64,000 nt of DNA from Oligoflexia bacterium (GTDB lineage Bacteria > Bdellovibrionota > Bdellovibrionia > JABDDW01), in NCBI GenBank assembly GCA_016715815.1, contig JADJXN010000007.1, forward strand, positions 5,549 to 69,548. Direction: 5' to 3'. This document shows, piece by piece, positions 15,789 through 60,729 of the stretch. Every line of letters starts with the position of its first letter. Position 1 is the stretch's first letter. The position numbers and the translations under genes were made by a program. The notes beneath the pieces are model-generated. The model saw nothing but the letters and a program-made list of their open reading frames with translations. It made no database searches and was not told the DNA's origin.

Positions 15789-15853
15789 CCCTTTAAACTA
15801 AAACTTAAACTACTAAAAAAGCCTTAGTTAATCAATAAATTGCTGCTTAGGGC

Positions 15854-32789: not shown

Positions 32790-32882
32790 GGAGAGGTGGC
32801 TACGGAGTGGTTGAAGGCACATGATTGGAAATCATGCATACGGGCAACCGTATCGAGGGTTCGAACCCCTCTCTCTCCGCCA
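32790..32882 (+). tRNA. tRNA-Ser (anticodon GGA)
   Basis: GGAGAGGUGGCUACGGAGUGGUUGAAGGCACAUGAUUGGAAAUCAUG + long variable arm CAUACGGGCAACCGUAUC + GAGGGUUCGAACCCCUCUCUCUCCGCCA; resembles E. coli tRNA-Ser. Confidence 0.85.
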
Positions 32883-34149
32883 ACACCAGGGCTAAAAAAT
32901 TAAAAACATTAGATTGCAAAATTCGAAATGTGTTAAATAATATATGTTAAACGCGTCAAAAACTGAAGACTATCTTTACGGGGGTATGGCGATGAAACTT
33001 TTAATTTGTATAATGACATTTTCAATAAACGCGTTTGCGGCGACACCTTTTCTTGATCAATATTTTCTTGTGGGACCACATAATGACACCTATTTTTTTG
33101 CTCCCTTAGCCAAAACCCATTGCAAAGAATATCAAGTCTTTAAGATTTCTTGGCTAACATTGAGTTAAGCTTTAAAAATCAATGAGCGATGATGTTTTAC
33201 TTTTTGGAAGTTACCCAGTTTATACTGAATACGCCTCTTGCCCTGAGACTGATAATCAGGTTGTTATTAATTTTCAGGATATATATCTGCAAAAACAGAA
33301 AAGGAAATCTGTTGCTAGCAGAATATGTAAAAAGGGTGAATAAAAAAACGTTTTTTAATAGATATTTAGCCTTTTTAAAACCAGAACACACAGTCAATGT
33401 ATTCAATTTCGAAATAGATGGTGTTACAACCCTAAGATATCATAAAGATGCAATATCTTTTTCTGATGCCACACAGGAAGTTGATGAATTTAAAAAAAAT
33501 TAATATTAACCATGGGTAAAGCTGATGCTGTGAAAGATTTTCTTAGGAAAATCAATAAAGCCTAGTGATTATGAAAACACAATAAGATTAATAGAAATGC
33601 TAAGTATATTACATTTTTCTTCGTCATCAATGGTTCATGTTGAAATACTTTGCGTGAAGGAGATGGTTATTGGGAGCATTATCCTTGTAATCCAAACTCC
33701 TTTTTGCGAATTAGTTTCAATGCAGCAATAACTTGGTTCTAAATCTGGATTTTCTCGGCCAGAACCACTTTTGTAAAAAACTAACACCCAAATATGTCAC
33801 TGACTTTTTGGTCAGCTCTGAACAAAAATAAAACAGCCTAGCAAGTGGAACATGCTAGTTTAACCTTTCTTTTAATGCACCAGGCTAAACCTGCCAAATA
33901 AATCAAGACATGCATGCGTGATATCAATGCTATACTGCTCCCTTGTAAGTCATTGACACCACAAAACCTATAACTGGTAAAGATTATGAACCCTTGAAGC
34001 TGCCAAAATATTTGGTAGAAAGGATGTCTCAAAATGGAGACTCAAATGGTAAAAGAGCCTAAAATAGCGGTGTTGATTACTAAGTTATGTAGTTCACAGG
34101 AATTTAGAGGATTACTGGCGAGCTGAAGAGAAAGTTGAATTGATTGTGA

Positions 34150-35240
34150 TTGGTCTGACAAGGAAAAATTCCAGTGACAACCCTTTGCAAGATCAACAAC
34201 GTAACGCCAAGTCAGTATTACGAGTGGCGGGAGAAATTTTTAGCTACAGGTAAGCGGGGCCTCATGGCAAATGGAGGTAAGACCCAACGAGAAGCTGAGC
34301 TTGAGAAGAAAATAAGTATTTTTAGAGCGCTGTATTGGAGAATTAACTCTTGAAAAGAGTTGTTAAAAAAATCAGCGAAGATTCCTAAAGTTAGGAAAAT
34401 TGTTAATAAATATAAGAACGACTTTAAGGTGCGAACCCTGAGCAAGGTTCTTGGGGTGAGTCGCCAAAGGGTTTATTTTATTAAAAAATGCCCAGAGTTA
34501 AGAGCACCAGAAGGGAAAGAAAAATGAAAGAAGATGAGGCTATGATAATAAAAAATATTGAAAATTGTTTCGAGAACTACCTGTCTATGGCTATAGACGT
34601 GTAACAGCTGTTTTGCGCCACAGGTATGGATTAAGGTAAGCTGGAAAAGGTTTACAAGATAATGCGTGAGAAAACTTTGTATGCCACCAAGTCACAGTCA
34701 CTTAAAAAGATGTTTAGAGGAGTACCGTTTGCAACAAAACTCAAGTTCAAGATCAAATGAGTTATGGGGTATAGACATGACATACATTTGGTGTGGTTAA
34801 AGATGTAGTGCTACTTCCATGGAGTTATTGATCATCATGACAAGACGTTGCTTAGTTACTATTTTCAAAGATCTTGCTCTGCCTTGGGTGGTGTAATGGC
34901 CTAGGGAAATGCAGCATCCAGAGAAGTGAGTCCTTGGAGTTAGATCTGATAACGGTTGTCACTATGGAGCGAAGGTCTTTAAAGACGAGATTAGACGTCT
35001 TAGAATTAATCATACAAGAACTATGGTTAATACCCCCAAAGGCAATGCTGAATTGAGAGATTTTTAGATCACTCAAAGAGAATGGTGTGGCAACAGAAAT
35101 TTTTAATTTTGAACAAGCTAAAGAGGCTGTTGATAAATGGTATTAAAGTACAACCAAGAGCGCCCACACCAAACCCTTGATTACTTAACCCCAAAACAAT
35201 TTTACGAAAGGAGCACTATAGGAAATATTCAACAAAAAGT
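34150..35240 (+). mobile_element. degenerate IS3-family insertion sequence copy (transposase orfA/orfB remnants)
   Basis: OrfA-like (QYYEWREKFLATGKRG...REAELEKKISIF) and rve-like (WGIDMTYIW, ...QPRAPTPNP) translations broken by many stops and frameshifts. Confidence 0.5.
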
Positions 35241-35460
35241 GTCTTGATTTATAGGGAGCACTACACACTTTTCCTTGTCCAAAGAGCCTCACACTTAACG
35301 GAGGTTCTTATGAATCTAATCACTCGAATTGTTTTAGGGCTGGTGAAGCTGGCGTTAGCCATCGGCTTCGCCGGAGGGCTAATTGATCTCACGCATACCA
35401 TGAAGGACGAGGCGCTGAAGGCTCATAGGCAAGGGATCGTGATGACCTTCTCCCCTTAAA

Positions 35461-36643
35461 TTAGTCCAGTCTGAGTCGGATTAAACTGTGGTAAAAGCTA
35501 CAGAAGGAGGAGGTAGGTATGTCCAGAGGGAAGAGATATAGTCCAGAGGAAGTAATAATAAAACTACGCGAAGCTGAAGCTTTGCAGGTTCAAGGATTAA
35601 ACCAAGGTGAAATTTGTAGGCAACTTGGTGTTTCAGCAGACACTTATATCCGTTGGGAAAAGATATGGTGGGATGCGTGTTGATCAAGCAAAAAAGCTTA
35701 AAGATCTGGAAAGGAGAATCAGCAGCTTAAAAATTAGTAGCTGATTTAAGCCTTGATAATTCCATGCTCAAAAGTTAACAAGGGAAACTTTTAAGCCCGA
35801 CAAGGAAGCGTCAAAAGCTGTGGTGATGTTAATAGAAAAGTTTGAAACATCTGAACGTCGGGCATGTAAAGTTGTTAGTCTTTTCAGAGCGACAAAAGAT
35901 ACGAAGCAAAAGTAGATACAATAAATAAAGTGATCACGCCAAAAATTGAGTACGCAAGTCAATATGGGCGCTATGGCTACAGGAAGTAACAGCAATGGTG
36001 AGAGCTGATGGGTTTTAAAGTGAATCACAAAAGAGTTTACCGTATATGGCGTAGGAGGAGGATTAAAAGTACCAAAGAAGCAACCAAAAGAAGTAGACTT
36101 TGGCTCAACGATGGATCTTGTATCAGAAAAAGGCCGGAGTATAAAAATCATGTGGTCATATGATTTTGTGCATGATTACACACATGATGGAAGGCCAATA
36201 AAGATGTTAACCATCATTGATGAATTTAGTAGAAAACTTAGCAATCAAAGTGGGGAGAAAATTAAGATCTATAGATGTGTTAGAAGCACTGGCTGATTTA
36301 TTTTTAGAAAAAGGAATTCCAAAATACATCAGATCAGATAATGGGCCAGAATTTATTGCCAGAAAACTTATCCACTGGTTTGGCAAAATTAAAATAAGTC
36401 CATTATTTATCACACCAGGGAGTCCATGGGAGAATGGTTACATTGAATCATTTAATGGGAGACTCAGGGATGAGTTGTTAAATGGAGAAATATTTTTTAC
36501 ATTAAAAGAGGCTCAAGTTTTGATAGAGAGATGGCGAAGAAATTACAACACCATAAGGCCACATAGTAGCTTAGGTTACAAACCACCAGCTCCTGAGGCA
36601 ATTATGGTTGCAATTTAAACTATCCGACTGTACATGGACTAAA
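35461..36643 (+). mobile_element. degenerate IS3-family insertion sequence with imperfect terminal inverted repeats
   Basis: Left end TTAGTCCAGTCTGAGTCGGAT is mirrored at the right end as ATCCGACTGTACATGGACTAA; OrfA MSRGKRYSPEEVIIKLREAEALQVQGLNQGEICRQLGVSADTYIRWEK; orfB full of stops. Confidence 0.65.
36217..36618 (+). pseudogene. IS3-family transposase, integrase-core C-terminal fragment
   Basis: rve domain tail SDNGPEF...[23 protein letters not shown]...[11 protein letters not shown]. Confidence 0.7.
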
Positions 36644-36656
36644 TAGTGGGGCTGGG

Positions 36657-36860
36657 TCACTCTCCCCAAGGGTCGCTATTATATGTTGTTATTTGATCTA
36701 GGCCTACAATAGGAGTTGGCCAAGAGCTCTGGCTTAAAGCCGCCTCATAGCCGAGTTTATTAATTTTATTTTGAGCGGATACAATGGTATCTGCATCAAG
36801 AGCTGCAGCAAAAGAATTTAAAGAAAATAATGCGATTAAAAAAAGCAGTGTTAGTTTCAT
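36657..36860 (-). CDS. small secreted peptide (67 aa, Sec signal)
   Basis: MKLTLLFLIALFSLNSFAAALDA...; immediately downstream of the NTase/PqqD operon. Confidence 0.35.
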   Translation of the reverse strand: MKLTLLFLIALFSLNSFAAALDADTIVSAQNKINKLGYEAALSQSSWPTPIVGLDQITTYNSDPWGE

Positions 36861-36975: not shown

Positions 36976-38103
36976 TTAGGGTTTACCTTTTAATTTCCTT
37001 AGGCCATAAATTGCTCGCCAAATATAAAGAGCTGGTAAATAGATGTTGGATTTGATGTTATATTTTTTCTTCATGTATTCTTTGGGGGGGATAAGTCGTT
37101 CCTGTAAGTATTTGAGTTTATTTGGTAAGCTTAGACTTTCTAAATCGCAAACAAAATCGCTTAGAAGGCTGCGCTTGGGGCTTAAAAAAACTATAGAATC
37201 AGCCTCATCACTATTGGGCTTGGCACTTATAATTTCTTGTAAGAAAGTCTCGGGCCATATTGTATTAAACCATTCTTTCGTTTTTTCCATGCCTTTAGCA
37301 CATAGAAACCAAACTTTTTTTTCTTTTGCTAGGTTTTGAAAATCCGTCAGCCAGATTGAGTTTTTTTTGTCAGTTAAAAGATGTGTATCATAAAGCCACA
37401 GCGGGTTTTCCTCATCGTGGTGGTGCGCAACACCATGAATAAAAGCATACAAGAGAGCGTGATGGTCGTTCATCACCTTTATGACTCCATTATGTTCTGG
37501 CAAATCTTGAGCTGCACTATAAGCCTCATCAAAAGAAATAAGATTTGCAAAATAATTAATATTACTGAGCTTCCAGTGCAGATCAAAAACCAAATTATAA
37601 CCATGGTGTTCAAGTTTTGAAAAGGCGCACTGATGTCCTGCCTGTTGGCCATAGGTCATATTTTCTTGTCTATAACCTAGAGATTTGAAAACCTGGAAAG
37701 CTAATTGACGATTTTTTTCAGAAATAAAAAGATCAATATCTCCGTGAGCGCGCAGACCTGGTCTTGGGTAAATGGTATAGGAGAGCGCAGCCCCTTTTAA
37801 AACAAGAAAAGGAATATTATTTTTTTTAAACTCAAGGCCTAATTTAATTAGGGCGTGTTTTCTGATGTCTATTAAAAACGTTTCTCGTGCTACCTCAAGC
37901 TTAAGGGCTTGCTTAACAGACGACGGGCAGGTTTGTGTAAGGACATTTTGTTCTAGCCAGTAATTTAATAGTGGCAGGAGATGATTTTTTTTTAACTCGT
38001 CTAAAAGAAATTTTTGAAACCCGGCATCGCTTTCATCCCAAGTTACAGTAGTGCTGTTAGCAGCTTGCTGTATTACTTTCTGAAATTTTTTTTGGTAAAG
38101 CAT
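36976..38103 (-). CDS. Pol-beta-type nucleotidyltransferase family protein (lasso-cluster-associated type)
   Basis: hG[GS]...D.D signature in AHGDIDLFIS; 4-nt gap to the upstream PqqD gene. Confidence 0.6.
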   Translation of the reverse strand: MLYQKKFQKVIQQAANSTTVTWDESDAGFQKFLLDELKKNHLLPLLNYWLEQNVLTQTCPSSVKQALKLEVARETFLIDIRKHALIKLGLEFKKNNIPFLVLKGAALSYTIYPRPGLRAHGDIDLFISEKNRQLAFQVFKSLGYRQENMTYGQQAGHQCAFSKLEHHGYNLVFDLHWKLSNINYFANLISFDEAYSAAQDLPEHNGVIKVMNDHHALLYAFIHGVAHHHDEENPLWLYDTHLLTDKKNSIWLTDFQNLAKEKKVWFLCAKGMEKTKEWFNTIWPETFLQEIISAKPNSDEADSIVFLSPKRSLLSDFVCDLESLSLPNKLKYLQERLIPPKEYMKKKYNIKSNIYLPALYIWRAIYGLRKLKGKP

Positions 38104-38107
38104 AGAT

Positions 38108-38395
38108 TTACTGAAAGCTAATCAAATTATTTTTTTTTAAAACTTTTAGTAAGGATAAAACATCGGTCTCTGCTTTTTGTTTGCCAATCTGGTAATCTTG
38201 CACAAGTGTAGTAATAATTTTTTTTACAGGAGTTCCTTTTTTTATCAGTTCCCAAATTTGGGTCCCAACCTGGTTAAGACCGAAGTACGTTCCTGATTCT
38301 AAATGAAGTATGACTTCTTCTTTTTGAACGGGGCGCGAGACAATGTCTTTAGAAATTATTATTTTAGATTCAAGAAGGTTCTTTGTGCTTTGCAT
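38108..38395 (-). CDS. PqqD-family RiPP recognition element (lasso B1-like)
   Basis: 95 aa (ILHLESGTYFGLNQVGTQIWELIKKGTPVKKIITTLVQDY) with the typical PqqD winged-helix pattern. Confidence 0.75.
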   Translation of the reverse strand: MQSTKNLLESKIIISKDIVSRPVQKEEVILHLESGTYFGLNQVGTQIWELIKKGTPVKKIITTLVQDYQIGKQKAETDVLSLLKVLKKNNLISFQ

Positions 38396-39641
38396 AGACC
38401 ACCTGCGGGTTAGAGAATAATTTATTAAACAACAAATTTTTATTTTTTGTCAAGTAATGTTCAACAGTATATGCAGCATAAAGCATTAAATAGATATCCA
38501 GATAGGTTCTGTGTAATGTGTGGGCCCAAAAAACCCCTGTTATAATAATAAATGATGCAAAGTGAAAATAAATAAGAAGCTGTGTTTTTATTTTTTCTCT
38601 ATTTAAATACATTCCAATTAAACCCAAAAGCAAAAGTGGTGTGTAAGAAAAAAAATAAACAATTTGTACAACTGGAGTTTTTTGCGGGTTAAAAATCCAA
38701 CTAAAACCAGCCATATTTTTTTTTATAAAACCCACAAAAGTTTGCCATGGGTGAGTTTTAATGTATTTGATAGCCATTTGAGTGTACCACTGGTTCTGTA
38801 GACGCTCGTTATGTTCTATCAGATAAATCTCAACTATATCTAGATCGATAAAGGCTTTTGAACGGCTTGTATCCATGCTTTCTCTTGGGTAGTGAGAAAA
38901 TGTGTGAGGATTATTCCCTCCCCAGAGAGCCTTACCAAACTGGGAGGTTATTAGTGGGGCGCCAATAAGAAGATGGGTGCGTATAAGCCACGGTAAAATA
39001 GTGAAAAAACAAAAAATAATAATTAAAAGGGGTTTTCCAAATTTTATTTTAATATGAGCGGTGTTATTTATAAAAACCCATATTGCGGCAAGTGGTACAA
39101 ATGGGAATAGAGTGCTTCGGACAAGTAAGGTTAGGCCTAAACAGATCCCTGCTACAGCACTTAGATAAAGCTTTTTTGAATTGTTAGCCTTGATTAGAAA
39201 GACGGTGCTAAGTGCCGTCATAAATGTAAAAAGACTAGCTTCGTGTAATGAAGGATCATGAAGAACAAAGTAAGGGTAAAGAGCTGTTAATAGAGCTGCA
39301 CTTATTCCTATTTTGTAAGAGAAAAATTTTTTTCCGATGTAGAAGATGCAAAGTGTGGTGGCGGCGCCTAAGAGAGATTGGAGAACAACAATAACAATAA
39401 AACTCATGGAGCTTAATGCCGCAAAACTAAGAAGAAGTGGGTAGCCGGGTGGAATAAAGGCGTAGTAGGCTGGGTCGCCGAGGTAAAGCCCGTATCCTTG
39501 TGTAAGATTTTTTGCAATCTGAAAGTAGGACTCATATCCACGGTTCCAAAATAAATCCTCTCCGACAATAAAGGCGGAGCCTGCGCGCAGCATAAAGGCG
39601 AGTACAAAAATTAAATGTAACCGATATTTTTTTATATACAT
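38370..39641 (-). CDS. GT-C fold membrane glycosyltransferase (ArnT/PMT family)
   Basis: 423 aa polytopic protein with an ArnT/PMT-like N-terminal loop (...YAFIPPGYPLLLSFA...) and ~10 TM helices; 3' end overlaps the PqqD gene. Confidence 0.6.
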   Translation of the reverse strand: MYIKKYRLHLIFVLAFMLRAGSAFIVGEDLFWNRGYESYFQIAKNLTQGYGLYLGDPAYYAFIPPGYPLLLSFAALSSMSFIVIVVLQSLLGAATTLCIFYIGKKFFSYKIGISAALLTALYPYFVLHDPSLHEASLFTFMTALSTVFLIKANNSKKLYLSAVAGICLGLTLLVRSTLFPFVPLAAIWVFINNTAHIKIKFGKPLLIIIFCFFTILPWLIRTHLLIGAPLITSQFGKALWGGNNPHTFSHYPRESMDTSRSKAFIDLDIVEIYLIEHNERLQNQWYTQMAIKYIKTHPWQTFVGFIKKNMAGFSWIFNPQKTPVVQIVYFFSYTPLLLLGLIGMYLNREKIKTQLLIYFHFASFIIITGVFWAHTLHRTYLDIYLMLYAAYTVEHYLTKNKNLLFNKLFSNPQVVYAKHKEPS

Positions 39642-39703
39642 TAATTGTGGTTATCCTATGTTTAGTCTTGCAATGAGCGGGCAAAATAACAATAATTTTC
39701 TAT

Positions 39704-40855
39704 ATGCATTCTGAATCTGCTTTAAAGATCCCATTAGTTTCCCAATTGCTGAAAGACCCTTCTTTTAAAATAATAAAACGTGCGGTTGATTCAAAATGGA
39801 TTTATGAAAAGCTGGTTCCATTGGGCCATTGCGGCTTTAACCCTGCCACCAATGCGGCCTATGTAGGTTTTAATTCGTCAGTGTCGCAGTGGTTACAAAA
39901 TCCCAAGCAAAGTATTCGCAGTTTTAACTTTAACGATACATTTTTACATGAGCTTTTTTTTATAATCCATGATTACCTTCATGCCTGGAGCTACAATGCC
40001 ATTAACGAGCTTTACCCAGGTTTAAAATTTGGTTACGGAAAAATTACTGAAAAAAACTTTGAAGACTATGTTTTTTGCCATATTTTAACTGAGGCGGTAG
40101 CCACGGTGGGCCTAGATTATTGGTATTTATCCACCATTGAATTAAACCAGGTAATACCAGTAGGCGCTAATATCAAAACACTGACAGCGGCTTATCACGT
40201 AAAAAATAATTCGGAATATAGACGCTTTGACCCTAAGTTTAATGCACAAAAAAGGGGTTTTTTAAAAACACTTAACGATGCTTATTGCGATGGTATTTTT
40301 TATGCTTTACCAATGAAAGCCATCCAACTCAGCCCTCAGATATATAGATGGTATTGGCATGAGCTGACCTATGGGAGGCTTCAGAGAAAATACACTCGTC
40401 AATGGTTAAGCTATTTGTCTGCGGGCGAGGTTGTGTGTGAGCAGGCTAAGCTAGATATTAAAATCGATAATTCAAAAAAATGGATGCAAGAACTTGTTGA
40501 AGACTTATCCCTATTGCTTTGGCAAAAGGTTAAGGAGAATAAAAATATTTGGTTTAAGCCGCAATACGATGTTAAGCACGACGCTTGGGGCGGGAGTGGA
40601 AAATTGCAAATGGACAGTAGGTTTACATCGTTGATCCATCTAAAGACGCCAAAAACATTTAATTATCTTGACTACTATGTATCTCAATATGCCATTAGAC
40701 ATACCTTTTCTGAGAATAGTAAGGCCATTGCAAGCCAGCTTCCAGAAATTGCCAAAAGTAAAAATTTGCAAAAGCTAAAGAAAATATTTAAAAATCAAAA
40801 AAAGGTAGAGTCCGCGTTTGACGTCTATCCACAATCGCTTTTTATGCTCCCCTAA
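39704..40855 (+). CDS. hypothetical protein with HExxxxxH motif
   Basis: 383 aa; FLHELFFIIHDYLHAW; no known domain recognised. Confidence 0.35.
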   Translation: MHSESALKIPLVSQLLKDPSFKIIKRAVDSKWIYEKLVPLGHCGFNPATNAAYVGFNSSVSQWLQNPKQSIRSFNFNDTFLHELFFIIHDYLHAWSYNAINELYPGLKFGYGKITEKNFEDYVFCHILTEAVATVGLDYWYLSTIELNQVIPVGANIKTLTAAYHVKNNSEYRRFDPKFNAQKRGFLKTLNDAYCDGIFYALPMKAIQLSPQIYRWYWHELTYGRLQRKYTRQWLSYLSAGEVVCEQAKLDIKIDNSKKWMQELVEDLSLLLWQKVKENKNIWFKPQYDVKHDAWGGSGKLQMDSRFTSLIHLKTPKTFNYLDYYVSQYAIRHTFSENSKAIASQLPEIAKSKNLQKLKKIFKNQKKVESAFDVYPQSLFMLP

Positions 40856-49652: not shown

Positions 49653-50951
49653 ATGGATTTGTCTCTTGTAATACCCTGTTATAACGAGGCACTGTATTTA
49701 AAAAATAATTTTAATGCTCTGGTTAGTGTATTAAAGCAGACTAGCTATGAGTTTGAAATTATTTTTGTTGATGATTGCAGTACAGATAACACAAAAGAGA
49801 TCATTGGCGAAATTAGTAACTCAAGCCATAATTGTAAAGCCATATTTAATTTAAAAAACTTAGGCAGAGGCACTTCTTTTAAGCAAGGCTTTTCAGTGGC
49901 TGAGGGGCGAATTATTGGCTTTATTGATATCGATTTAGAAATAGCCCCCCATTATATTCTTGATCTCATTTCCAAAATTGATAAAGAAGGTTTTGATTTA
50001 TCACTTGGCCGGCGCTTTTTGTTTTATGGCTTTCAAAAACCAATACGTAATATTTTTTCCCTTCTTTGTAGATATTTCTGCTCTCTAGTACTTGGAACGC
50101 AAAATTACGACACCCAAGTTGGATGTAAGTTTTTTAATGGCCATACGGCGCGACCGAGTATTTTAGAAAGTAAAAGTAGTAGTTGGTTTTGGGATACAGA
50201 AGTTATATTTATGGCGCAATTAAATAAACTAAAGATTGTTGACATTCCAGTTCGCTATAGACCGCTTAAAAATAAAAAATCAACAGTGAGAATTATTCCT
50301 GACACGATTAAATTTATACAAGGGGTGCGTGAACTAAGGCGCAAAATGGGATTGAGTTTATCTAATCGCTCCCCCATATATTGGAGCAATAAAGGGTATA
50401 ACTTTATTATGCAACTATTGACTGGGAAGAGTTTTCAACAATCTTTTTCAAAAGTGGCAGAGCTTATTCCAGAAAGTGCTTCGGTTATTGATGTTTGTTG
50501 TGGAACTGGAGAGTTTTATTATAAACATTTAAAACAAAAAAATTGTGATTATAGAGGGCTTGACTATAATTATCGTTTTGTAAAAGGCATTAATAAAAGA
50601 GGGGTAAAATCAAACTTGTCTGATGTTCGTTATGAGAAAATCCCGGCTTGTGACTATGTTGTTATGGTTTCAAGTTTTTATCATTTTAAAAAACAAAAAA
50701 ATGAAATATTAAAAAACATGCGAGCCTCGGCTCAAAAGGCGGTAATTATTAGTGAGCCTGTGCACAATTTTTCGCGGCACCGTATTGGTTTTGTGTCAAA
50801 GGTGGCAGTTATGCTAAGTAAGCCTGGGGAAGGGGAGTATATGGAACGCTTTAATTTAAAAGAGTTTCAAGAATTTGCACAAGCGGAAGGAGCAACAGAG
50901 TTTTATTTTAACTCTAAAGATAAAAATGCCATTGCGGTTTTTAAAACTTGA
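49653..50951 (+). CDS. bifunctional GT2 glycosyltransferase / class I SAM methyltransferase
   Basis: N-terminus LVIPCYNEALYL...FVDDCSTDNT (GT2); C-terminus VIDVCCGTGEF (SAM motif I). Confidence 0.7.
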   Translation: MDLSLVIPCYNEALYLKNNFNALVSVLKQTSYEFEIIFVDDCSTDNTKEIIGEISNSSHNCKAIFNLKNLGRGTSFKQGFSVAEGRIIGFIDIDLEIAPHYILDLISKIDKEGFDLSLGRRFLFYGFQKPIRNIFSLLCRYFCSLVLGTQNYDTQVGCKFFNGHTARPSILESKSSSWFWDTEVIFMAQLNKLKIVDIPVRYRPLKNKKSTVRIIPDTIKFIQGVRELRRKMGLSLSNRSPIYWSNKGYNFIMQLLTGKSFQQSFSKVAELIPESASVIDVCCGTGEFYYKHLKQKNCDYRGLDYNYRFVKGINKRGVKSNLSDVRYEKIPACDYVVMVSSFYHFKKQKNEILKNMRASAQKAVIISEPVHNFSRHRIGFVSKVAVMLSKPGEGEYMERFNLKEFQEFAQAEGATEFYFNSKDKNAIAVFKT

Positions 50952-50976
50952 GCCTATTTTAGAGGTTACATAAAAA

Positions 50977-51759
50977 ATGTCAAAAATCAGTGTTGTTATT
51001 CCAGTTTATAATCAGTCGCACTTTACAAAGAGATGCTTGCCATCTTTAATTGATGGAGCGGTTGAGCCGCAAGAGCTAATTATTATCGATAACAACTCAA
51101 CTGACGACACACCAAAATATTTAAAAGAGTTTCAAGAATATGCAGAAAATAAAAATTGGAAGATGCAAATTATTACAAACCCCCAAAATGTGGGTGTGGG
51201 GGCGGCGTTTAATCAAGGTATTAAGGCGGCAAGTGCGGAGTATGTAGCCCTTGGCAATAACGACACTTGGATTATGCCCGGCTGGGACAACGCTTTAATT
51301 AACGCTATTGAAACTTTGAAAGCCGACATGGTAGGCCCTCATTTTGACGAGAGCTTATTTAATGAAAAGGAAATTTTAGAAAAGGCAAAAAAATTTGTTA
51401 AAAAAAATCACGGACGTGCAACGCGCGAGTGGGCTGTTATTTTAATGATGTTTAAAAAAGAAGTTTTTGAAAAAATTGGTCTTTTTGATGAGCGCTTTTT
51501 TATCACCTACGAAGATCGTGACCTAAGAGAGAGAATGGACCGTGCCGGTATGAAGTATTATAAAACTGGTAATTGTTATATTTGGCATCATTCAAAAGGT
51601 ACCCGCGATGCCGGTGGTGTTGTTTCTAATTATGAGGCTGATAGTTTAAAAAAATTTATTGAAAAGTGGGGCTTTGACCCAAGGCCACAGGAAAACACAC
51701 TTTTATACCGCTACAAACGCAAATGGGTACGCTTTAAAAATCGGCTAGGTTATCTTTAA
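50977..51759 (+). CDS. glycosyltransferase family 2
   Basis: ISVVIPVYNQSHFTKRCL...IIIDNNSTDDT... Confidence 0.8.
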   Translation: MSKISVVIPVYNQSHFTKRCLPSLIDGAVEPQELIIIDNNSTDDTPKYLKEFQEYAENKNWKMQIITNPQNVGVGAAFNQGIKAASAEYVALGNNDTWIMPGWDNALINAIETLKADMVGPHFDESLFNEKEILEKAKKFVKKNHGRATREWAVILMMFKKEVFEKIGLFDERFFITYEDRDLRERMDRAGMKYYKTGNCYIWHHSKGTRDAGGVVSNYEADSLKKFIEKWGFDPRPQENTLLYRYKRKWVRFKNRLGYL

Positions 51760-52837
51760 TAATTTCAGCAGCTAACTTTATTCCTTCTGGGTTCCAGTGG
51801 GTGTCATCCAGCCAATAAATATACTTATTATTTTTCAATAATTTTTCTGCAACAACTTGAAACTGAGGAAGTAAATTAATGCTATGAACTTTATTTTTGC
51901 TAAGCTCATTTGAAAGCTGATTTAAATAGGGCTCACTATTTGTTGTGCTTTGGTTTTTGTTCAAATTTGCATAAACAGTGTATTTTTCAGGAACAAGTAC
52001 AACGTGTAGGGTGATTTGTTTTTTTGCTAATAATTTTTTAAGTTCTGTAAAATACTGTGTATCACTAGTTATCTGATTAAAGCTTGGGTGATTGTACTTC
52101 TCTATTTGTGAGGGTGGGTAAATTATTTCCGCATTATTTATTAATTTTTCAATTTTTACATTTGATTCAAAGCGATTTGGAAAAATATTTTTAGTTACAA
52201 AACTCTTTTCAAAGCGAGATGAAATAATCTCAAGGGGGTTAAAATTTTTATAGTAATCAAACAAAATTTTTAATTTGCTAAAAAAACTATTATCTAAAGT
52301 CTTGTTAAAATCCTTTATCTCCTCAGGACTTCTGTGGTGTCTTTCAAGGTGAAAAAACAAAAGAGCCTTGGGAGTTGTTGTTAAATTTTTTAAAAGCCAA
52401 GCTAAATATTCAAGCTCAAGTTTTCCGGCCCCATTATAAACATGAGCATTTAATGCTTTTGATAGCTGCTCTGCTGGAATCTGCTCTTGTGAAACGCCCT
52501 CGCCAAAAGTAAAGGAATCGCCATAAATAAGAATATCATTTTTTTGATTAAATACATCTAAAGTATTTCTGTAGCCCCATGGATCTGTAATAAATATTTC
52601 TGAGCGGTATTGACAAAAATCCATGCGGTTTGAAAGTTTTGCCAAGTCTCCACAAATAGCATTTTTTTGCATATTAAAATTGGCTTCAAAAGGTGCCGCG
52701 GGAAGGCGTCTTAAACTGGCGCACTCAAGGGCTCTTGTGCAAAACACTGTGGGAGATAATGAGCGCGGCAAAGTATAAGCTGCTAAAAAAAGAGCGTATA
52801 CTATTAAAACTATTTTTATAAAGCCTAAATTCCTCAT
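51734..52837 (-). CDS. AlgJ/AlgX-like DHHW-motif SGNH protein (MBOAT partner)
   Basis: N-terminal anchor; LDDTHWNPEG (DxHW signature) near the C-terminus; immediately downstream of an MBOAT gene. Confidence 0.6.
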   Translation of the reverse strand: MRNLGFIKIVLIVYALFLAAYTLPRSLSPTVFCTRALECASLRRLPAAPFEANFNMQKNAICGDLAKLSNRMDFCQYRSEIFITDPWGYRNTLDVFNQKNDILIYGDSFTFGEGVSQEQIPAEQLSKALNAHVYNGAGKLELEYLAWLLKNLTTTPKALLFFHLERHHRSPEEIKDFNKTLDNSFFSKLKILFDYYKNFNPLEIISSRFEKSFVTKNIFPNRFESNVKIEKLINNAEIIYPPSQIEKYNHPSFNQITSDTQYFTELKKLLAKKQITLHVVLVPEKYTVYANLNKNQSTTNSEPYLNQLSNELSKNKVHSINLLPQFQVVAEKLLKNNKYIYWLDDTHWNPEGIKLAAEIIKDNLADF

Positions 52838-52846
52838 ATCCCTTTC

Positions 52847-54217
52847 TTAAAACTGAAAATATAAAAATGGTGAATTATTATTTGCCAAAATTCTTACTAG
52901 TGAGATTAAAAATAAAGCTGCCATGGCCCAAGATTTAATTTTGCCATATTTATGTTTAAGCTCAAAGGTATTGGGCATTGTATGGGCTATAATAATGCTT
53001 AATGCTACAACACAGGCCAGAGTTTGCCACTGAGCTGGCATAGCACCTGGCATTTGGCCAAACATTTTATTTAAAATTAAAAATGAAGTAGCCATATCAG
53101 GGGATCTAAAAAAGACCCAGGCAATAACAACCAATAAAAAGGTGATCATCTTTGCAACAAAGGGTGAAAGCTTGGCATTACCAAACTCTTTCCATAAGTG
53201 GTTTATAATCAAATAAATTCCATGCAAAGCGCCCCAAATAATAAATGTCCAGTTGGCTCCATGCCAAAGACCGCCTAAAAGCATAGTGATAAATAAATTT
53301 ATTTTAGTTCTCAAAGGTGAGATTCTGTTTCCCCCAAGGGGAATATATAAATAATCTCTTAGCCAAGTAGAAAGGCTAATGTGCCAGCGGCGCCAAAAAT
53401 CAGAAATATCTATGGCCTTATAGGGTGAGTTGAAATTTTGTGGAATTCTAATTCCAAACATGTAACCAAGGCCTACGGCCATGTCACTGTAGCCAGAAAA
53501 GTCAAAATACAGCTGATACGTATAGCCCAGCATTATAAGCCAAGTGCCAGAGCTGCTAAGAGTATTTATATTTAAAAATGCTGGGTCAATAATAGCGGCA
53601 ATGCTATCTGCGATGAGTACTTTTTTAAAAAGCCCAATAAGAAAAAAGCTAAAACCCTCATTAATTTTGGAAAATTTGTCAGACTTATCAATTTTCTCTA
53701 AATCTTCCTCAATTTGCCTAAAGCGCACAATGGGCCCTGCGACAAGTTGAGAAAATAAAGAAACATAACAAGAAAATTCAAAAAAGTTTTTTGTAGGCTT
53801 AATAGTTCCGCGGTAGGCATCAATAATGTAGCTCATGGTGTGAAAGGTGTAAAAAGATATACCAACTGGTAAAATTATTTTTAAAGCTGGCAAATCAACA
53901 GCCCAGTGCATATTATCTGCAAAGAAATTATAATATTTAAAAAAACCTAAAAGCGCTAAATCAACACTAATGGCTAAAACCATAGCCCTTTTTTTAAGTA
54001 TTTTATTTTTAGCTTTTAAAATATAAAGGCCTGCAAAATAACTTACCAAAGTTGAAAAAAGCATTAATAGGCAAAACCGCGCATCCCACCAACCATAAAA
54101 AACATAGCCAGTAAGAGTGAGCCAAAAGTAGCGCTCAGTTTTGGTTTTAAGGTTCCAAAAAACAAAATAAGTTATGGGTAAAAAGGCAAATAAAAAGACA
54201 ACACTGTTAAAGAGCAT
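52847..54217 (-). CDS. MBOAT-family membrane-bound O-acyltransferase (AlgI-like)
   Basis: FSGYSDMAVGLGYMFGIRIPQNFNSPY...FWRRWHISLSTWLRDY; paralogous to 40856..42337. Confidence 0.85.
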   Translation of the reverse strand: MLFNSVVFLFAFLPITYFVFWNLKTKTERYFWLTLTGYVFYGWWDARFCLLMLFSTLVSYFAGLYILKAKNKILKKRAMVLAISVDLALLGFFKYYNFFADNMHWAVDLPALKIILPVGISFYTFHTMSYIIDAYRGTIKPTKNFFEFSCYVSLFSQLVAGPIVRFRQIEEDLEKIDKSDKFSKINEGFSFFLIGLFKKVLIADSIAAIIDPAFLNINTLSSSGTWLIMLGYTYQLYFDFSGYSDMAVGLGYMFGIRIPQNFNSPYKAIDISDFWRRWHISLSTWLRDYLYIPLGGNRISPLRTKINLFITMLLGGLWHGANWTFIIWGALHGIYLIINHLWKEFGNAKLSPFVAKMITFLLVVIAWVFFRSPDMATSFLILNKMFGQMPGAMPAQWQTLACVVALSIIIAHTMPNTFELKHKYGKIKSWAMAALFLISLVRILANNNSPFLYFQF

Positions 54218-54220
54218 TAT

Positions 54221-55453
54221 TTATTCTAAAATTTTTGTTTCCGGAATGAAGACAACAAATTTTGCGCCCCAATCTTTGATGTAGGAATGTTTTTTGGCAA
54301 TCTCGTCTTTAAAATTCCATGGCAAAATAACAACATAATCTGGTTTTTCTTCCTTTAAAGCATGGGCAGCTTTAATTGGAATATGTGTTCCAGGTAAAAA
54401 GCGTCCTTGTTTTGCGGGAGTGTCATCTACGGTAAAGTCTATAAAATCAGATCTAATGCCACAAAAATTTAAAAATGTGTTTCCTTTTGCTGGGGCACCA
54501 AAGCCTGCAATCTTTTTTCCTTGGTTTTTTGCTTTAATTAAAAAATCAAGGGCTGATCTTTTTGTTTTATGTACTTTTTCTTTAAAAGAAAAATAATACT
54601 CTTTATTTTTCATCCCAGCAGTTTCTTCTTTTTTATTCAAATCTAAAAGACGCTGAGACATTTGTTTTTTTAATTCTTTATGGGTTGCATAAATTCTTAA
54701 AGAGCCACCGTGAGTGGGTAGTTCTTCACAATCAAAAATTTCAAGACCATGATGCAAAAATATTCCAGAAACAGCGTGAAGAGAAAAATAAGAAAAATGC
54801 TCATGATAAATGGTATCAAACTGGTTGTGAGTCATAAGTTGGTAAAGGTGTGGAAATTCCATGGTGATTACACCTTTTGGTTTTAAAGCGCGCTTCATTC
54901 CAGCAACAAAATCATTAATATCTGGTACATGGGCTAAAACATTATTGCCAATAAGTAAATCTGCTTGCTTATTGTCTTCACAAAGCTCAATGGCAGTTTG
55001 TACGCCAAAAAATTTCACTTCAGTGGGTATTCCCTTATTAAGGGCTTTAACTGCAACATTAGCTGCCGGTTCTACACCCAAAACAGGAATGCCTTTTTCT
55101 TTAAAGTATTGAAGTAAGTAGCCATCGTTTGATGCTAATTCAACAACTTGGCTGGCGGATGTAAGTTTAAAGCGATCAATGGCCATTTCTGCATATTTTT
55201 TTGAATGCTCTAACCAAGTTTGGGAGTAAGATGAGAAATAAGCATAATCGGTAAAAATATGAGCTGGACTTTGTACCTCCTCTACCTGAACCAAATGACA
55301 CTTATGGCAAAGGTACAAGCAAAGTGGGTAAAAGGGCTCCATGTGGTGAATGTGGCTCAAAGGTAAGTAACTATTGGCCAGTGGTGACATACCAAGGTCA
55401 ATGATGACGTCTTTCAAAGTTGTTTTACAGAACCTGCATTCTGGACTGCTCAT
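54221..55453 (-). CDS. class I SAM-dependent methyltransferase with N-terminal zinc-ribbon (sugar C-methyltransferase-like)
   Basis: CRFC...CHKC zinc-binding N-terminus; SAM motif I VVELASNDGY; C-terminal domain typical of the TylCIII-like C-methyltransferase family. Confidence 0.7.
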   Translation of the reverse strand: MSSPECRFCKTTLKDVIIDLGMSPLANSYLPLSHIHHMEPFYPLCLYLCHKCHLVQVEEVQSPAHIFTDYAYFSSYSQTWLEHSKKYAEMAIDRFKLTSASQVVELASNDGYLLQYFKEKGIPVLGVEPAANVAVKALNKGIPTEVKFFGVQTAIELCEDNKQADLLIGNNVLAHVPDINDFVAGMKRALKPKGVITMEFPHLYQLMTHNQFDTIYHEHFSYFSLHAVSGIFLHHGLEIFDCEELPTHGGSLRIYATHKELKKQMSQRLLDLNKKEETAGMKNKEYYFSFKEKVHKTKRSALDFLIKAKNQGKKIAGFGAPAKGNTFLNFCGIRSDFIDFTVDDTPAKQGRFLPGTHIPIKAAHALKEEKPDYVVILPWNFKDEIAKKHSYIKDWGAKFVVFIPETKILE

Positions 55454-55458
55454 GATGG

Positions 55459-56226
55459 ATGTTATATTATAATAATGTTTGGGCTTTCAAGGAGGAATTT
55501 ATGTCCAAAAAAACTTGGCATGTGCACATGAGTGGGCAAACATTAGGGCCGCTTACCACTGAGGCTGTTAAAACCATGCTAAGCCAAATGCGCCTGCATT
55601 TTGTGGATTATATTTGGACACAAGGTTTTACCAAATGGTTAAGAATTAACGAAGTTGATGATTTTATGTCCCTTATGCCAAGCTACCCTCAAGAGTCCAT
55701 ACCGAGTGTTGCAAAAGAAAGTAAAGATATGGCTGAGGAAGAAGTTGTTGTGCCACTGAAGCCTAAAAAAGCGTTGGCGCCAAAAACTACATCTAAATCT
55801 TCTCCTAAGGCCTCTCCCGCACCCACTCTAAAGCCAGCACCTGAGCCAATTGAAGAAGAAGCGCTAGAGCCTGAGCCACCGGCACCGCCCCCAGTGCCTG
55901 CTAAAAAAGTTTGGCCAAAAGAGAGAAGGACAATAAGAGTTAAGCTTGAGGGCGGAGTAAATATCTCAAAAATTGGGGAGTATGTGCTGGTTGATATTAG
56001 TGAGGGTGGAGTTTTCGTTAAAGCACAAAAAAATTTAGAAATTGGAACTGAAGTTAAGTTTTCACTGCGCTCAAATCTGACAAAAGAAGTTCTTCATTTA
56101 ACGGGTGTGGTTATTAGACATGGTATTAGCCACAATGAGCAGGGTTTTGCCATTGAGTTTACCCGCCTTAACCCCAGCTACAAACGCCTCATTAAGCAAT
56201 ACGTGGCTCAATTTAATGTTGAGTAA
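55459..56226 (+). CDS. DUF4339(GYF-like)-PilZ domain protein (c-di-GMP effector candidate)
   Basis: N-terminus WHVHMSGQTLGPLT...; Pro-rich linker; PilZ motifs RRTIR and DISEGG. Confidence 0.65.
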   Translation: MLYYNNVWAFKEEFMSKKTWHVHMSGQTLGPLTTEAVKTMLSQMRLHFVDYIWTQGFTKWLRINEVDDFMSLMPSYPQESIPSVAKESKDMAEEEVVVPLKPKKALAPKTTSKSSPKASPAPTLKPAPEPIEEEALEPEPPAPPPVPAKKVWPKERRTIRVKLEGGVNISKIGEYVLVDISEGGVFVKAQKNLEIGTEVKFSLRSNLTKEVLHLTGVVIRHGISHNEQGFAIEFTRLNPSYKRLIKQYVAQFNVE

Positions 56227-59200
56227 ATTATTAGTTCTTATAACTCTGTTTTGTTTTTCACATTTAGCTAGTGCTGATGCTTTAGATAATTTAATACAAA
56301 ACTCAAAGTGGGATGATGCTGTTCAAACTTCTTTTGAAATAACAAAAAAAAACCCTAATAACCATGATGCCAGGCTAAAAGGGGCTTATGCATTATTTCA
56401 AAAAGGGTATTTTAATTCTGCACTAGTGTATTTAAAAAGTATCCCCATGGCTGAGTGGAAAAAGCTACCACAGGGAAAAGATAAACTTGTAGAAGTTGTT
56501 TTGTTATTTCAAAAAAAAATGCCAGCCCAATTTATTCCCTGGCGCCTAGATCAACTTCCAACAGATATTTCTTCAAATGTAACGGCTGATGAATTAAATT
56601 ATGCAAAAGCAAGACTGGCTTTTGAGTCTGGCAATGATGCTTTAGCAGAAAAGCTTTTTTTGCAAATTAACTCAGGCTCTAGATACTATGCGGCAAGTCT
56701 TTATTTGCTGGGTTCTATTAAAGTTAAACAAACTGACTATGCTCAGGCACACTTTTATTTTTCTAAAGTTTTTGAACCAGTGGTTTTTGAAAAATCAACT
56801 GAGTTTTGGAAAGATGTTTCATCTGAAATGACATCCCACTGGGGGGCTAATTTAAAAATTCAATTCACAGCAGATCCACTTTTGCAAATTAAGCGAATTG
56901 GTGAGCTTTCAATGCTAGGGCTTGCAAGGCTTGCCTATGCTCAGAAAAAATTTGACCTTGCTCTTGAAAGATACTCTAAAGTTCCATCAAGCTCTAAGTA
57001 TTATAACCGGGCTAACATAGAAAAAGTTTGGGCTCTACTTTCTATGGCAAAGCACCAAGAGGCCGAAGCCCTAGCATCAAAACTAGAGTTTGAAAGTGCA
57101 GGGGTTGAGTCTATGGAGGCTAAAATATTAAAAGCCCTTATTATGGCCGACGCTGGTATGAGCGAAAAGGCAAGGTCTGAAATTAATGAATTTCAAAAAA
57201 AATACCTTGAATCAAAAAAAGATATTACCCCCTTTTTAAATTTAAAAAATGATCAAAGAATACAGGCCTTAGAAGAAAGTCAGAAAAATATTAAATCTGA
57301 AATTGAAGATTTGAAAAAAGAGGAATTAAGAATTTATTCTGCTTACAAAAAATTTGCCTCAGATTTAGAGGCTTTAAAATTTCAATCCGCAAATTTAATT
57401 GCCAGGTGGAATAAGGAAAAAGCAGTTAATGCCAGGGCGGATTTAGATAAGTTTTATTTGCAGTCAAAACTAATAAAAGCCGAAACCTACTTAGAGGAAC
57501 ACCATAAATTAAAATTAGAATTTAAAAAAACTGGAGCAGGTATTGACCTTAAAAAACAATCGGAGTATGAGGCACGTCTGGCAGATTTATTAGAAAAAGC
57601 TTCTGAGCAAGTTGGTGGGATGGACCAATCTTTAAATTTAAAATTCAGACAAAGTGAAATTATTTGGGAATTAGGAACTACTAAAATAATTCTAGGCCAG
57701 GAAAATGAAGGGGAAAAATTAAGAGAGCAGGCCACAAAAATTATAGAAGGTATAGCTAACCAAAAATTTAATAAGCAAGACCAGGCTCTTTTCTTTTTAG
57801 GTTTTGCTTACATGGAAACCGGGCGAACAAATGAGTCTATGCAAGTATTTAGAGATTATGTAAAGCGCTTTCCCCAGCATGTGCATGTGCCAGATGCATA
57901 TAGAATATTGGGGGATCAAAACTTTGATGAGAATAAATTTGTCCAAGCTGAAAATGATTATAAGCAAGTTTTGCAATTTGCAGATTCTCCTTTTGTTGGC
58001 TACGCGCTTTATAAATTAGGTTGGTCTGGTTACAATTTAAGAGCTTATGGTCGTGCACTTTTGGGTTTAGAAGAAGCCTATTTATGGACTAAAAAATCAG
58101 CCCAAACCGGTGGGGAGCTTTTAAGCCTTCAGCGTGAGGCAAGGCGGGATCTGATTTCAGTTTATGCGGAACTAGGAGATCACAAAAAGGCTTTTGAATA
58201 TTTTAAAAATATTGACCAAGATTATCTTCCTTGGATTTTAGAGCTTGTGAAGCAGCTAGAGCAAAATGGTCAGTATGAAAAGACTCAAGACCTCTATGCT
58301 CAGCTCATACAAGCAGATCCAAAATCTAAAAATGCAATGCTTTATCAAGCTGGAATTATTTATTCAGCCTATAGGCTTCAGCGTTGGCAAATTGTTGAAA
58401 CAACCCTTTTTGATTTATTAAATAATTATTCCGACCAGCTTAAAAACCCTACAAAAGAAGAAACAACTGAGGCAAAAGTAGAAGCCATTATTAGAGAAGC
58501 GGTAACAGCACATTTAAATGATTTTAAAGCCTCTGTTTTAGACGCAGTAAAGGAAAGAATTGTAAAATTAAATTCAACTTATTTAGGGGCGTTTGAAAAA
58601 TGGCCCCAGTCACAAAACCTGCTCTACAGACATGCTCAATACTTATTTGAAAATAATAATATTAAAGCCGCTCAAAATTGTTTTGAAAACCATTGGCTTT
58701 GGTTTAAAAATGAAATTAAAGACCCTTTAAAAGAGGAGGCCTTGAGAAACTTAATTTCAACTTTGGGCCGCTTAGAAGATTTAAACAAGGACAGTATTAC
58801 AAAATTAACATCTGAGGCTGAAAAGATAATTAACTTCACAACAGAGTATGAAAAACTCTACCCTGAGACCAAATACACCCGTACCATTTTATTTTTAAAA
58901 GCGTCTATCTTTTTGAAATTTAAAAAGCTTGAAGAAGGAATTAAAATTAGCCAGCAATTATTAGATGACAAAGCGGATGACGATATTACAAAAAAATCTT
59001 TTAAAAACCTGGCTAAAGCTTACTACGAATTAAGGGATTGGGAGCGTACCTATAATTGGGCTTTAAAAACTAAGGGCCCCAAAAATGAGCTTCAAATAAT
59101 AAAAGAAGAATCTTATTTCTTATGGGCGCAAGGAATTACGGATCCTAAAAAGGCTTCTGAATTATATTTAAAAATTGCACAAAATCCAGATATGGCAAAG

Positions 59201-60490: not shown

Positions 60491-60729
60491 AAATCTTTTT
60501 AATAATACTTTTTTGCGCTACGTCGAGTTGGGCGCAAGAACAAAGCAAGCCTAAAGTCATTTATAAAAAGTCTGAAACTCATAAATTTTCTGGTTTAAAA
60601 TTAAAAGGGCAATTCAAAAAACCCGAATTGAGTTATATTTATCAGAGAAAGGGAATTCGTTTTGAACAAATTGTCGATGTCCCGGAAAATTTTAACCAAC
60701 AAATTATCCACTCAAGCTCTGAGTTCTAG
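60487..60729 (+). CDS. small secreted protein
   Basis: Signal peptide IILFCATSSWAQE. Confidence 0.3.
   Translation: MKIFLIILFCATSSWAQEQSKPKVIYKKSETHKFSGLKLKGQFKKPELSYIYQRKGIRFEQIVDVPENFNQQIIHSSSEF

Follow-up and report, generated by a model that had tools for sequence, protein, structure and literature searches.

A 64,000-nucleotide stretch of DNA from an Oligoflexia bacterium (contig JADJXN010000007.1, positions 5,549 to 69,548; the whole of this stretch is called the window below) carries the genes for a predicted lasso peptide interleaved with genes for O-acyltransferases, glycosyltransferases and methyltransferases. We believe, with a probability of roughly 60%, that this locus is a composite, consisting of a lasso cluster that includes a gene for a GT-C membrane glycosyltransferase and of ordinary glycan-modification genes that were placed among the lasso genes by rearrangement. 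We assign the GT-C gene to the lasso set on the ground that members of its subfamily repeatedly lie within such clusters, usually as a direct neighbour of the gene (N) for a nucleotidyltransferase-like protein of the NTP_transf_5 family. Taken individually, the lasso cluster and the MBOAT (membrane-bound O-acyltransferase) systems of the window are ordinary, and it is the recurrent pairing of GT-C with N that is worth following.

A preliminary description of this DNA had offered two explanations for the mixture of genes. Either a surface polysaccharide modification locus had been fused with the peptide genes by island rearrangement, or the peptide is exported and then glycosylated or acylated outside the cytoplasm. 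The comparisons reported below divide these explanations between the genes. Rearrangement is favoured for the two pairs of MBOAT and SGNH-type genes, the GT2 glycosyltransferase genes and the C-methyltransferase gene, and is disfavoured for the GT-C. Modification of the peptide outside the cytoplasm is left only for the GT-C, and the evidence speaks against it for the acyl genes.

Gene identities were taken from Pfam and NCBIfam profile searches of the open reading frames (ORFs) of the window. Judged by its gene content, the window holds a complete lasso cluster of the kinase/nucleotidyltransferase type known from paeninodin and pseudomycoidin, with genes for a precursor (A), a leader-recognition protein (B1), a leader peptidase (B2), a cyclase (C), a kinase (K) and N (Table 1). 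The best NCBIfam matches of B1 (lasso_PqqD_Bac, 68.5 bits) and C (lass_lactam_cya, 354 bits) lie under the cutoffs of these models, which are 80 and 525 bits, respectively. The closest outside relative of the cyclase is 39-40% identical and resides in locus L001, a compact one-strand operon of the order B1-B2-C-A-K-N that has a 54-aa precursor and no glycan genes. The window kinase shares 38% identity over 314 aa with the kinase of this operon and 34% with that of a second locus, L123. For B2, candidate catalytic residues (Cys79 and His112) were picked by eye in the translation. The permease gene that follows B2 in the same orientation encodes a probable peptide exporter or immunity component, a role suggested by this co-orientation.

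The precursor, MKKIKKHKKKHQIKKKYESPKLTNYGNIKSVVK/ARKGGGGFDGGGGKPNSRASGWPPT (leader/predicted core), aligns with the precursors of related clusters and carries the leader motif YxxPxL as YESPKL. This alignment places the ring Asp at core position 9, and an Ala1-Asp9 ring is therefore predicted for the core, ARKGGGGFDGGGGKPNSRASGWPPT. The core peptide is cationic, with two Arg and two Lys residues, and the C-terminal residue of the precursor is Thr. The pseudomycoidin (psm) and paeninodin (pade) clusters share with the window the core genes A, B1, B2, C and K (and, in psm, N), the YxxPxL leader and a C-terminal hydroxyl residue. The window differs from them in several respects. Its genes form three units that occupy both strands, its precursor ends in Thr, and B1 and N share their orientation with a GT-C gene. 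In place of a fused exporter it has an ABC-2 type transporter encoded by two genes, and the host belongs to the Oligoflexia rather than to the Firmicutes.

The GT-C gene overlaps B1 by 26 nt, as the preliminary description had reported, and encodes a polytopic protein with at least eight hydrophobic segments. It belongs to a small and distinct subfamily for which we collected 27 relatives at 31-42% identity, including ones named Pyrinomonadaceae and Chloracidobacterium. All 21 invariant residues of the subfamily are kept in the window protein, and the conserved polar residues are H128-D129, S255, D257, the HTxHR motif at 374-378 and D382.

The contexts of this subfamily were compared in 84 loci (80 metagenome loci fetched by subfamily alignment and four from context look-ups), most of them on contigs of only 1.5-5 kb, and all ORFs of these loci were searched with the window proteins and with hidden Markov models for N, B1, B2 and K. 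Lasso-type genes (N, B1, B2 or K) are present in 22 of the 84 loci. When the GT-C proteins are grouped at 70% identity, 14 of 43 lineages are lasso-positive, as are 7 of the 18 lineages represented by a contig of 8 kb or more, and the positive loci are scattered throughout the GT-C tree. The association is also close: a lasso gene lies no more than 34 nt from the GT-C ORF in 14 loci, with N in 11 of these 14. The arrangement of the window, in which B1 directly follows GT-C, recurs in L150 and L135, and other orders are K / B1-B2-N-GT-C (L131), B1-C-B2-GT-C (L098) and N-GT-C-GT41 accompanied by C, B1, B2, K and a sulfotransferase gene (L086 and L123). The link between GT-C and lasso genes is recurrent. 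A lasso cluster makes up well under 1% of a genome, and measured against this share, with no formal background computed, the frequency and tightness of the co-occurrence are far above chance. We consider a functional tie between the GT-C and the lasso system quite probable. Its subfamily is not exclusive to such systems, and the non-lasso contexts tend to include a nearby gene for an AsnB-family amidotransferase in clusters of the O-antigen or exopolysaccharide (EPS) type (L084/L085 at 12360-14342, L095, L124 and L138).

Lasso clusters with a GT-C carry more tailoring-type genes, among them genes for TPR-GT41 proteins, for S-adenosylmethionine-dependent and PRMT-like methyltransferases, for a 2-oxoglutarate (2OG) oxygenase and for a UDP-glucose pyrophosphorylase-like protein. 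A gene encoding TPR and Glyco_transf_41 domains (O-GlcNAc-transferase-like) recurs directly beside the GT-C in lasso-containing loci (L086, L098, L123, L091, L097 and L115), and L123 has a pair of PRMT-like methyltransferase genes. The precursors of L086 and L098 end in ...NQHHS and ...QNHHS, respectively. Among natural products, lasso peptides have been mined heavily, and the survey of GT-C contexts points to heavily tailored clusters with GT41, PRMT-like, 2OG-oxygenase and sulfotransferase genes.

Known GT-C enzymes of the PMT_2 type work at the outer face of the membrane, with lipid-phosphate-sugars as donors. In the ArnC/ArnT and GtrA/GtrB/GtrC systems, a GT2 enzyme makes the polyprenyl-phosphate-sugar and a GT-C transfers the sugar outside the cytoplasm. 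The window GT-C shares with these systems the PMT_2 domain, the multi-span topology and the presence of GT2 genes in the same locus. It differs from them in that no flippase gene was identified, the GT2 genes of the window lie 10 kb from the GT-C gene, and the acidic motif of the first extracytoplasmic loop, present as E28 and D29 in the window protein, is not conserved across the subfamily.

The gene identities, the SGNH fold, the co-occurrence counts and the decay of the left flank are observed, whereas we infer the enzymatic steps, their substrates and the operon structure. B1, B2 and C would turn the 58-aa precursor into a mature lasso whose Ala1-Asp9 ring has nine residues, K would phosphorylate the C-terminal Ser or Thr of such peptides, and N would prime this phosphate. 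At the outer face of the membrane, the GT-C might then add a sugar from a polyprenyl-phosphate donor while the peptide is being exported or afterwards. For pseudomycoidin it has been established that PsmK phosphorylates the C-terminal Ser and that hexoses on this phosphate require the NTP_transf_5 protein PsmN (PMC6993621, PMC9266682). The discoverers of PsmN were undecided between two roles for it, a glycosyltransferase of a new kind and a producer of the substrate for a separate one, and the latter idea fits the pairing of N with GT-C (PMC6993621). PsmN-type 'nucleotidyltransferases' are widespread. Given that N and a distinct GT-C subfamily pair repeatedly across many unrelated lineages from soil and freshwater, the GT-C is a concrete candidate for this separate enzyme.

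The specific proposal that the GT-C subfamily and PsmN-type proteins jointly glycosylate phosphorylated lasso peptides across the membrane, with K and N priming in the cytoplasm and the GT-C acting on the outer face, is put forward tentatively. If true, the GT-C would be, as far as we have found, the first enzyme of this fold to act on a ribosomal natural-product peptide, and the finding would bear on the real role of PsmN-type enzymes. More generally, glycosylation of the exported peptide is a possible, though not a favoured, basis for the link between GT-C and the lasso system. Modification of the producer's own envelope by the GT-C for self-protection is an alternative basis that we also regard as doubtful.

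Glycosylation of lasso peptides by enzymes of other kinds is already known. The davasins of Streptomyces davaonensis are polyglycosylated on a Ser of the mature lasso peptide by IgtG, a membrane-associated fusion of a polysaccharide deacetylase with a GT2 (PMC11912497). The davasin (igt) cluster thus likewise places a polysaccharide-type glycosyltransferase, which was assayed in microsomes, beside a lasso peptide. However, IgtG is a GT2 of the GT-A fold, whereas the recurrent partner described here is a GT-C (PMT_2). The preliminary description remarked that glycosylation or acylation of lasso peptides outside the cytoplasm was not known to it; as far as glycosylated lasso peptides are concerned, this remark has been overtaken by pseudomycoidin (PMC6993621) and the davasins (PMC11912497). 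Our full-text literature search found no paper that links lasso peptides with MBOAT, PF13231 or PF14907, although the supplementary tables of Tietz 2017 and Zhu 2016 may already list the GT-C association. Nor did it turn up a GT-C or MBOAT described as acting on a lasso peptide.

The remaining glycan genes show a different distribution. Homologues of MBOAT1, MBOAT2, the AlgX-type protein, the 432-aa partner of MBOAT1, the C-methyltransferase and either GT2 are present in none of 24 related lasso loci, defined as loci with at least two lasso markers. Synteny, which the preliminary description had proposed as a check, therefore unites the lasso genes with the GT-C (in 22 of 84 loci) and separates them from all these other genes. 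Where the contexts of relatives of the accessory genes other than GT-C could be read, they are polysaccharide-type or plain and contain no lasso genes. The layout B1-B2-C-K-ABC-N, without glycan genes, is shared by thirteen more lasso clusters from reference genomes. These clusters came from a cyclase-alignment scan of a genome collection, with patterns generic to Asn synthetases, that gave mostly non-lasso AsnB loci (24-33% identity), including the polysaccharide loci used for comparison.

As the preliminary description had it, the two MBOATs are paralogues, each with an adjacent SGNH-type partner. They share 34% identity, and both contain the WHGANW motif with its conserved histidine. The partner of MBOAT2 is of the AlgJ/AlgX type, as was claimed, and its translation shows an N-terminal anchor as well as the motifs GDS and DTHW. 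The 432-aa partner of MBOAT1 was identified by fold search only, given that its family has no significant match in Pfam, NCBIfam or PDB sequence searches. An AlphaFold model built on a 42-sequence alignment (pLDDT 88.7) predicts an SGNH fold with catalytic Ser and His that resembles OatA-C, PatB and DltD, and the earlier assignment of an SGNH partner with a D-x-x-H motif is thus borne out at the level of the fold. A HMMER search gave 121 representatives of this uncharacterised family at 50% clustering, and its invariant residues are G130, G137, S139 and H409, within FGSSE and DxNH motifs. The family is probably a new class of O-acyltransferase partner.

Members of the 432-aa family are paired with an MBOAT in all five contexts that were read. 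The two-gene cassette occurs in four other contigs without lasso genes, three times in the order partner-MBOAT and once, in L171, as MBOAT-partner, and its neighbours there include Glycos_transf_4, Acyl_transf_3, methyltransferase and Epimerase_2 genes. MBOAT1 matches the MBOATs that neighbour members of the family in L169 and L170 with 445-489 bits, and the pair therefore co-evolves as a cassette. In L170, a Dlt-like module lies by the partner/MBOAT pair at 13525-17976 and consists of genes for an FkbH_N protein, a 79-aa protein (a possible carrier), a 322-aa protein, an MBOAT and a 66-aa protein. The closest relative of MBOAT2 among the fetched loci is 45% identical and lies in the polysaccharide locus L053, which has the order MBOAT-AlgX-AlgX-epimerase-AsnB.

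In having an MBOAT with the WHG histidine beside an anchored SGNH-fold protein, the window resembles the AlgI/AlgJ/AlgF/AlgX, PatA/PatB, DltB/DltD and WssH/WssI systems. It differs from these in having no AlgF, no alginate or cellulose synthase and no DltA or DltC, and in having a partner family that is absent from Pfam and NCBIfam. Dlt D-alanylation was considered and rejected, given that no ORF of 36976-56226 has an AMP-binding or carrier-protein domain (DltA/DltC). The DltB model matches the two MBOATs with 144 and 192 bits, under its 375-bit cutoff. Alginate acetylation was rejected as well, since AlgF, Alg8, Alg44, AlgK and AlgE were not detected in the window; the neighbouring PilZ protein is not taken for Alg44 because it has a GYF domain and lies beside Glt-type gliding genes.

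The GT2-methyltransferase fusion, the second GT2 and the Zn-ribbon C-methyltransferase-like enzyme of the preliminary description all have Pfam matches, and its count of three GT2 domains within 38370-55453 must be lowered to two, the third being a truncated GT2 outside this interval in the left flank. C-methyltransferases of the Zn-ribbon family act on NDP-4-keto-6-deoxyhexoses. The sole rmlA gene of the window is a pseudogene at 32 kb, and a C-methyltransferase gene in company with an rmlA that survives only as a pseudogene fits a once-larger deoxysugar or glycan locus that has since been broken up. The most likely task of the MBOAT/SGNH pairs, the GT2s and the C-methyltransferase is to build a glycan of the cell surface, or peptidoglycan, and to O-acylate it. 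The MBOAT, SGNH and C-methyltransferase genes probably represent unrelated glycan machinery, and this calls for caution before such genes are annotated as tailoring enzymes of RiPPs (peptides made by the ribosome and modified after translation).

The opposite view would be that the whole 18-kb set is one biosynthetic unit, whose lasso peptide, once exported, would receive a C-methylated sugar from the GT-C and the GT2s and O-acyl groups from at least one of the two MBOAT/SGNH pairs. Such a role for an MBOAT could be likened to that of the eukaryotic MBOATs GOAT, Hhat and Porcupine, which acylate secreted peptides, but we know of no bacterial MBOAT that acylates a peptide. The genes are indeed tightly interleaved, with short or overlapping junctions, and MBOAT1 and its partner lie between K and the GT-C-B1-N genes; however, both MBOAT pairs form apparent transcription units of their own that are not co-oriented with a lasso gene. 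Together the sugar-related genes could build and decorate a glycan, and other GT-C lasso loci are rich in tailoring genes (GT41, methyltransferases, the UDP-glucose pyrophosphorylase-like gene and the sulfotransferase), but homologues of the MBOATs, the AlgX-type protein, the 432-aa partner, the C-methyltransferase and the GT2s are missing from every one of the 24 related lasso loci, and both MBOAT cassettes are found elsewhere without lasso genes. Although membrane-associated GT2 glycosylation of a mature lasso peptide has a precedent (PMC11912497), the literature search joined no MBOAT to lasso peptides. We consider a single biosynthetic unit of this kind very improbable.

The composite reading accounts for the order of genes as follows. 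The lasso set is broken into three apparent units, C-A-K and GT-C-B1-N on the minus strand and B2 with the ABC-2 permease gene on the plus strand. These units are separated and flanked by two genes for proteins of 383 and 334 aa (unk383 and unk334) on the plus strand, the MBOAT1 pair, a convergent ABC ATPase gene, the two GT2 genes and the unit of AlgX-type, MBOAT2 and C-methyltransferase genes. We propose that the glycan genes probably reached their places among and around the lasso genes when a decaying, insertion sequence (IS)-scarred glycan island by a tRNA-Ser gene was rearranged. This setting is suggested because an rmlA pseudogene, glycosyltransferase fragments and IS3 remnants adjoin the tRNA-Ser gene. 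They belong to a decayed stretch, from 27.6 to 36.9 kb, between the housekeeping genes of the window and the lasso/glycan region at 36976-55453. The rmlA pseudogene, the GT1 fragment and the truncated GT2 look like the residue of a decaying surface-glycan locus.

Several observations weigh against this reading. The packing of the genes is very tight, with divergent starts 5-64 nt apart, and could mean co-regulation rather than accident. Convergent genes meet end to end or share up to 26 nt, and the start codons of the divergent C-methyltransferase and PilZ-GYF genes are 5 nt apart (55453/55459). A promoter and terminator scan gave the same counts as in shuffled sequence and so speaks neither for nor against. 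A scan of the locus for inverted or direct repeats that might mark inversion breakpoints gave AT-rich chance matches only, and base composition and GC content are uniform over the locus. All homologues in the comparison are at most 45% identical, and none comes from a close relative of the genome. The readable contexts of the MBOAT cassette number only five, and position -2 of the precursor is Val where related leaders have a conserved Thr. In rumen Firmicutes, GT2 genes are found together with lasso clusters of the kinase type (PMC7533575), and thus the GT2 genes of the window could serve the peptide or supply the donor of the GT-C. Finally, lasso genes are missing from most GT-C loci that have long flanks, and in L084 the GT-C is part of an O-antigen/EPS-type cluster with Wzy, GT4, WecA-like and AsnB-like genes, in which a GT2 gene directly follows the GT-C gene.

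Such occurrence of the GT-C outside lasso clusters would also be expected if none of the glycan genes, the GT-C included, acts on the peptide. The GT-C would then modify an envelope lipid or glycan in the manner of ArnT, and its recurrence beside lasso genes would reflect either self-immunity or the sharing of variable surface-glycan islands. We regard this explanation as unlikely. Lipid A modification of the ArnT type protects against cationic peptides, and the core peptide of the window is cationic; however, the precursors of other GT-C lasso loci (L123, L086 and L098) are not, so that a role in immunity against cationic peptides does not generalise. AsnB-family amidotransferases are common in polysaccharide loci, and lasso cyclases and glycan genes may consequently favour similar neighbourhoods. 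However, the GT-C gene adjoins or overlaps N or B1 in many independent lineages, more tightly than co-location in islands predicts, and in the window it is apparently co-transcribed with B1 and N.

It is also conceivable that the interleaving is an artefact, in that the contig is a chimera produced during assembly. The source is a metagenome-assembled genome, and switches of gene orientation are unusually frequent. Even so, an independent Logan assembly reproduces the stretch with unk383, GT-C, B1 and N at 100% identity over 3242 nt, GC content is uniform, and from 36976 to 55453 there are no truncated genes and the ORFs meet cleanly at each junction. Given the agreement of the two assemblies and the clean junctions, we reject a chimeric contig as exceedingly improbable.

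Table 1. Features of the lasso/glycan region and its flanks (window coordinates)
Feature	Position	Strand	Evidence and remarks
Truncated GT2	30043-30768		Domain match; left flank, outside 38370-55453
GT1 C-terminal fragment	30758-31045		ORF translation; left flank
rmlA (glucose-1-phosphate thymidylyltransferase) pseudogene	32046-32462	+	Frameshifted; just upstream of tRNA-Ser(GGA)
tRNA-Ser(GGA)	32790-32882		tRNA prediction; left flank
IS3-family transposase/integrase fragments	34100-36620		Degraded; short ORFs in different frames, immediately left of N
67-aa ORF	36657-36860	-	Clear N-terminal signal peptide; between IS remnants and N
N, NTP_transf_5 nucleotidyltransferase-like (PsmN-type lasso accessory)	36976-38103	-	PF14907, 113 bits; 4 nt downstream of B1
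B1, PqqD-type leader-recognition protein	38108-38395	-	PF05402, 63 bits (cutoff 23)
GT-C membrane glycosyltransferase (PMT_2)	38370-39641	-	PF13231, 42.6 bits (cutoff 26.1); co-oriented with B1-N
unk383, 383-aa protein	39704-40855	+	No family match; divergent from GT-C, convergent with MBOAT1
MBOAT1 (AlgI/PatA/DltB-like membrane O-acyltransferase)	40856-42337	-	PF03062, 84 bits
MBOAT1 partner, 432 aa, anchored, predicted SGNH fold	42310-43608	-	Overlaps MBOAT1 by 28 nt
unk334, 334-aa protein	43673-44677	+	No family match; HExxH motif (HECAH) from translation
K, HPr-kinase-like lasso peptide kinase	44662-45612	-	Weak Hpr_kinase_C and HprK_rel_A matches (21 bits vs 33-bit cutoff)
A, 58-aa lasso precursor	45619-45795	-	Between C and K, as in L001
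C, Asn-synthetase-like lasso cyclase	45792-47681	-	PF00733
B2, transglutaminase-like leader peptidase	47727-48146	+	NF033537 lasso_biosyn_B2, 78 bits (cutoff 33); PF13471, 70 bits; inverted relative to C
ABC-2 type permease	48159-48944	+	Weak ABC2_membrane match; 13 nt downstream of B2
ABC ATPase, DrrA-like	48933-49616	-	PF00005, 83 bits; TIGR01188 drrA, 142 bits
GT2 fused to class I SAM methyltransferase	49653-50951	+	PF00535, 105 bits; MetW and Methyltransf_23 matches
Second GT2 glycosyltransferase	50977-51759	+	PF00535, 102 bits
AlgX/AlgJ-type SGNH O-acetyltransferase partner of MBOAT2	51734-52837	-	PF16822, 52 bits
MBOAT2	52847-54217	-	PF03062, 114 bits
Zn-ribbon NDP-hexose C-methyltransferase-like (TylC3-like)	54221-55453	-	PF08421 Methyltransf_13, 71 bits; PF13489, 53 bits; PF08484 Methyltransf_14, 215 bits
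PilZ-GYF protein, 1461-aa TPR protein and GltG-like protein with AgmX/PglI C-terminal domain (suggested Glt-type module)	55459-61978	+	Directly right of the cluster

Other genes of the region deserve brief mention. The ABC-2 permease gene and the gene for its presumed ATPase converge with a 12-nt overlap (48933-48944), which is unusual for an ABC transporter pair. The proteins unk383 and unk334 have no homologue in Pfam, NCBIfam, PDB or any fetched locus and are not similar to each other, and the gene for each is wedged between minus-strand units of the cluster. Up to about 27.4 kb, the window contains housekeeping genes, including those for an acyl-CoA carboxylase, an RND efflux pump, RNase P RNA, rpoD and dnaG. 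On the right side, the genes for the PilZ-GYF, 1461-aa TPR and GltG-like proteins suggest a Glt-type gliding-motility module.

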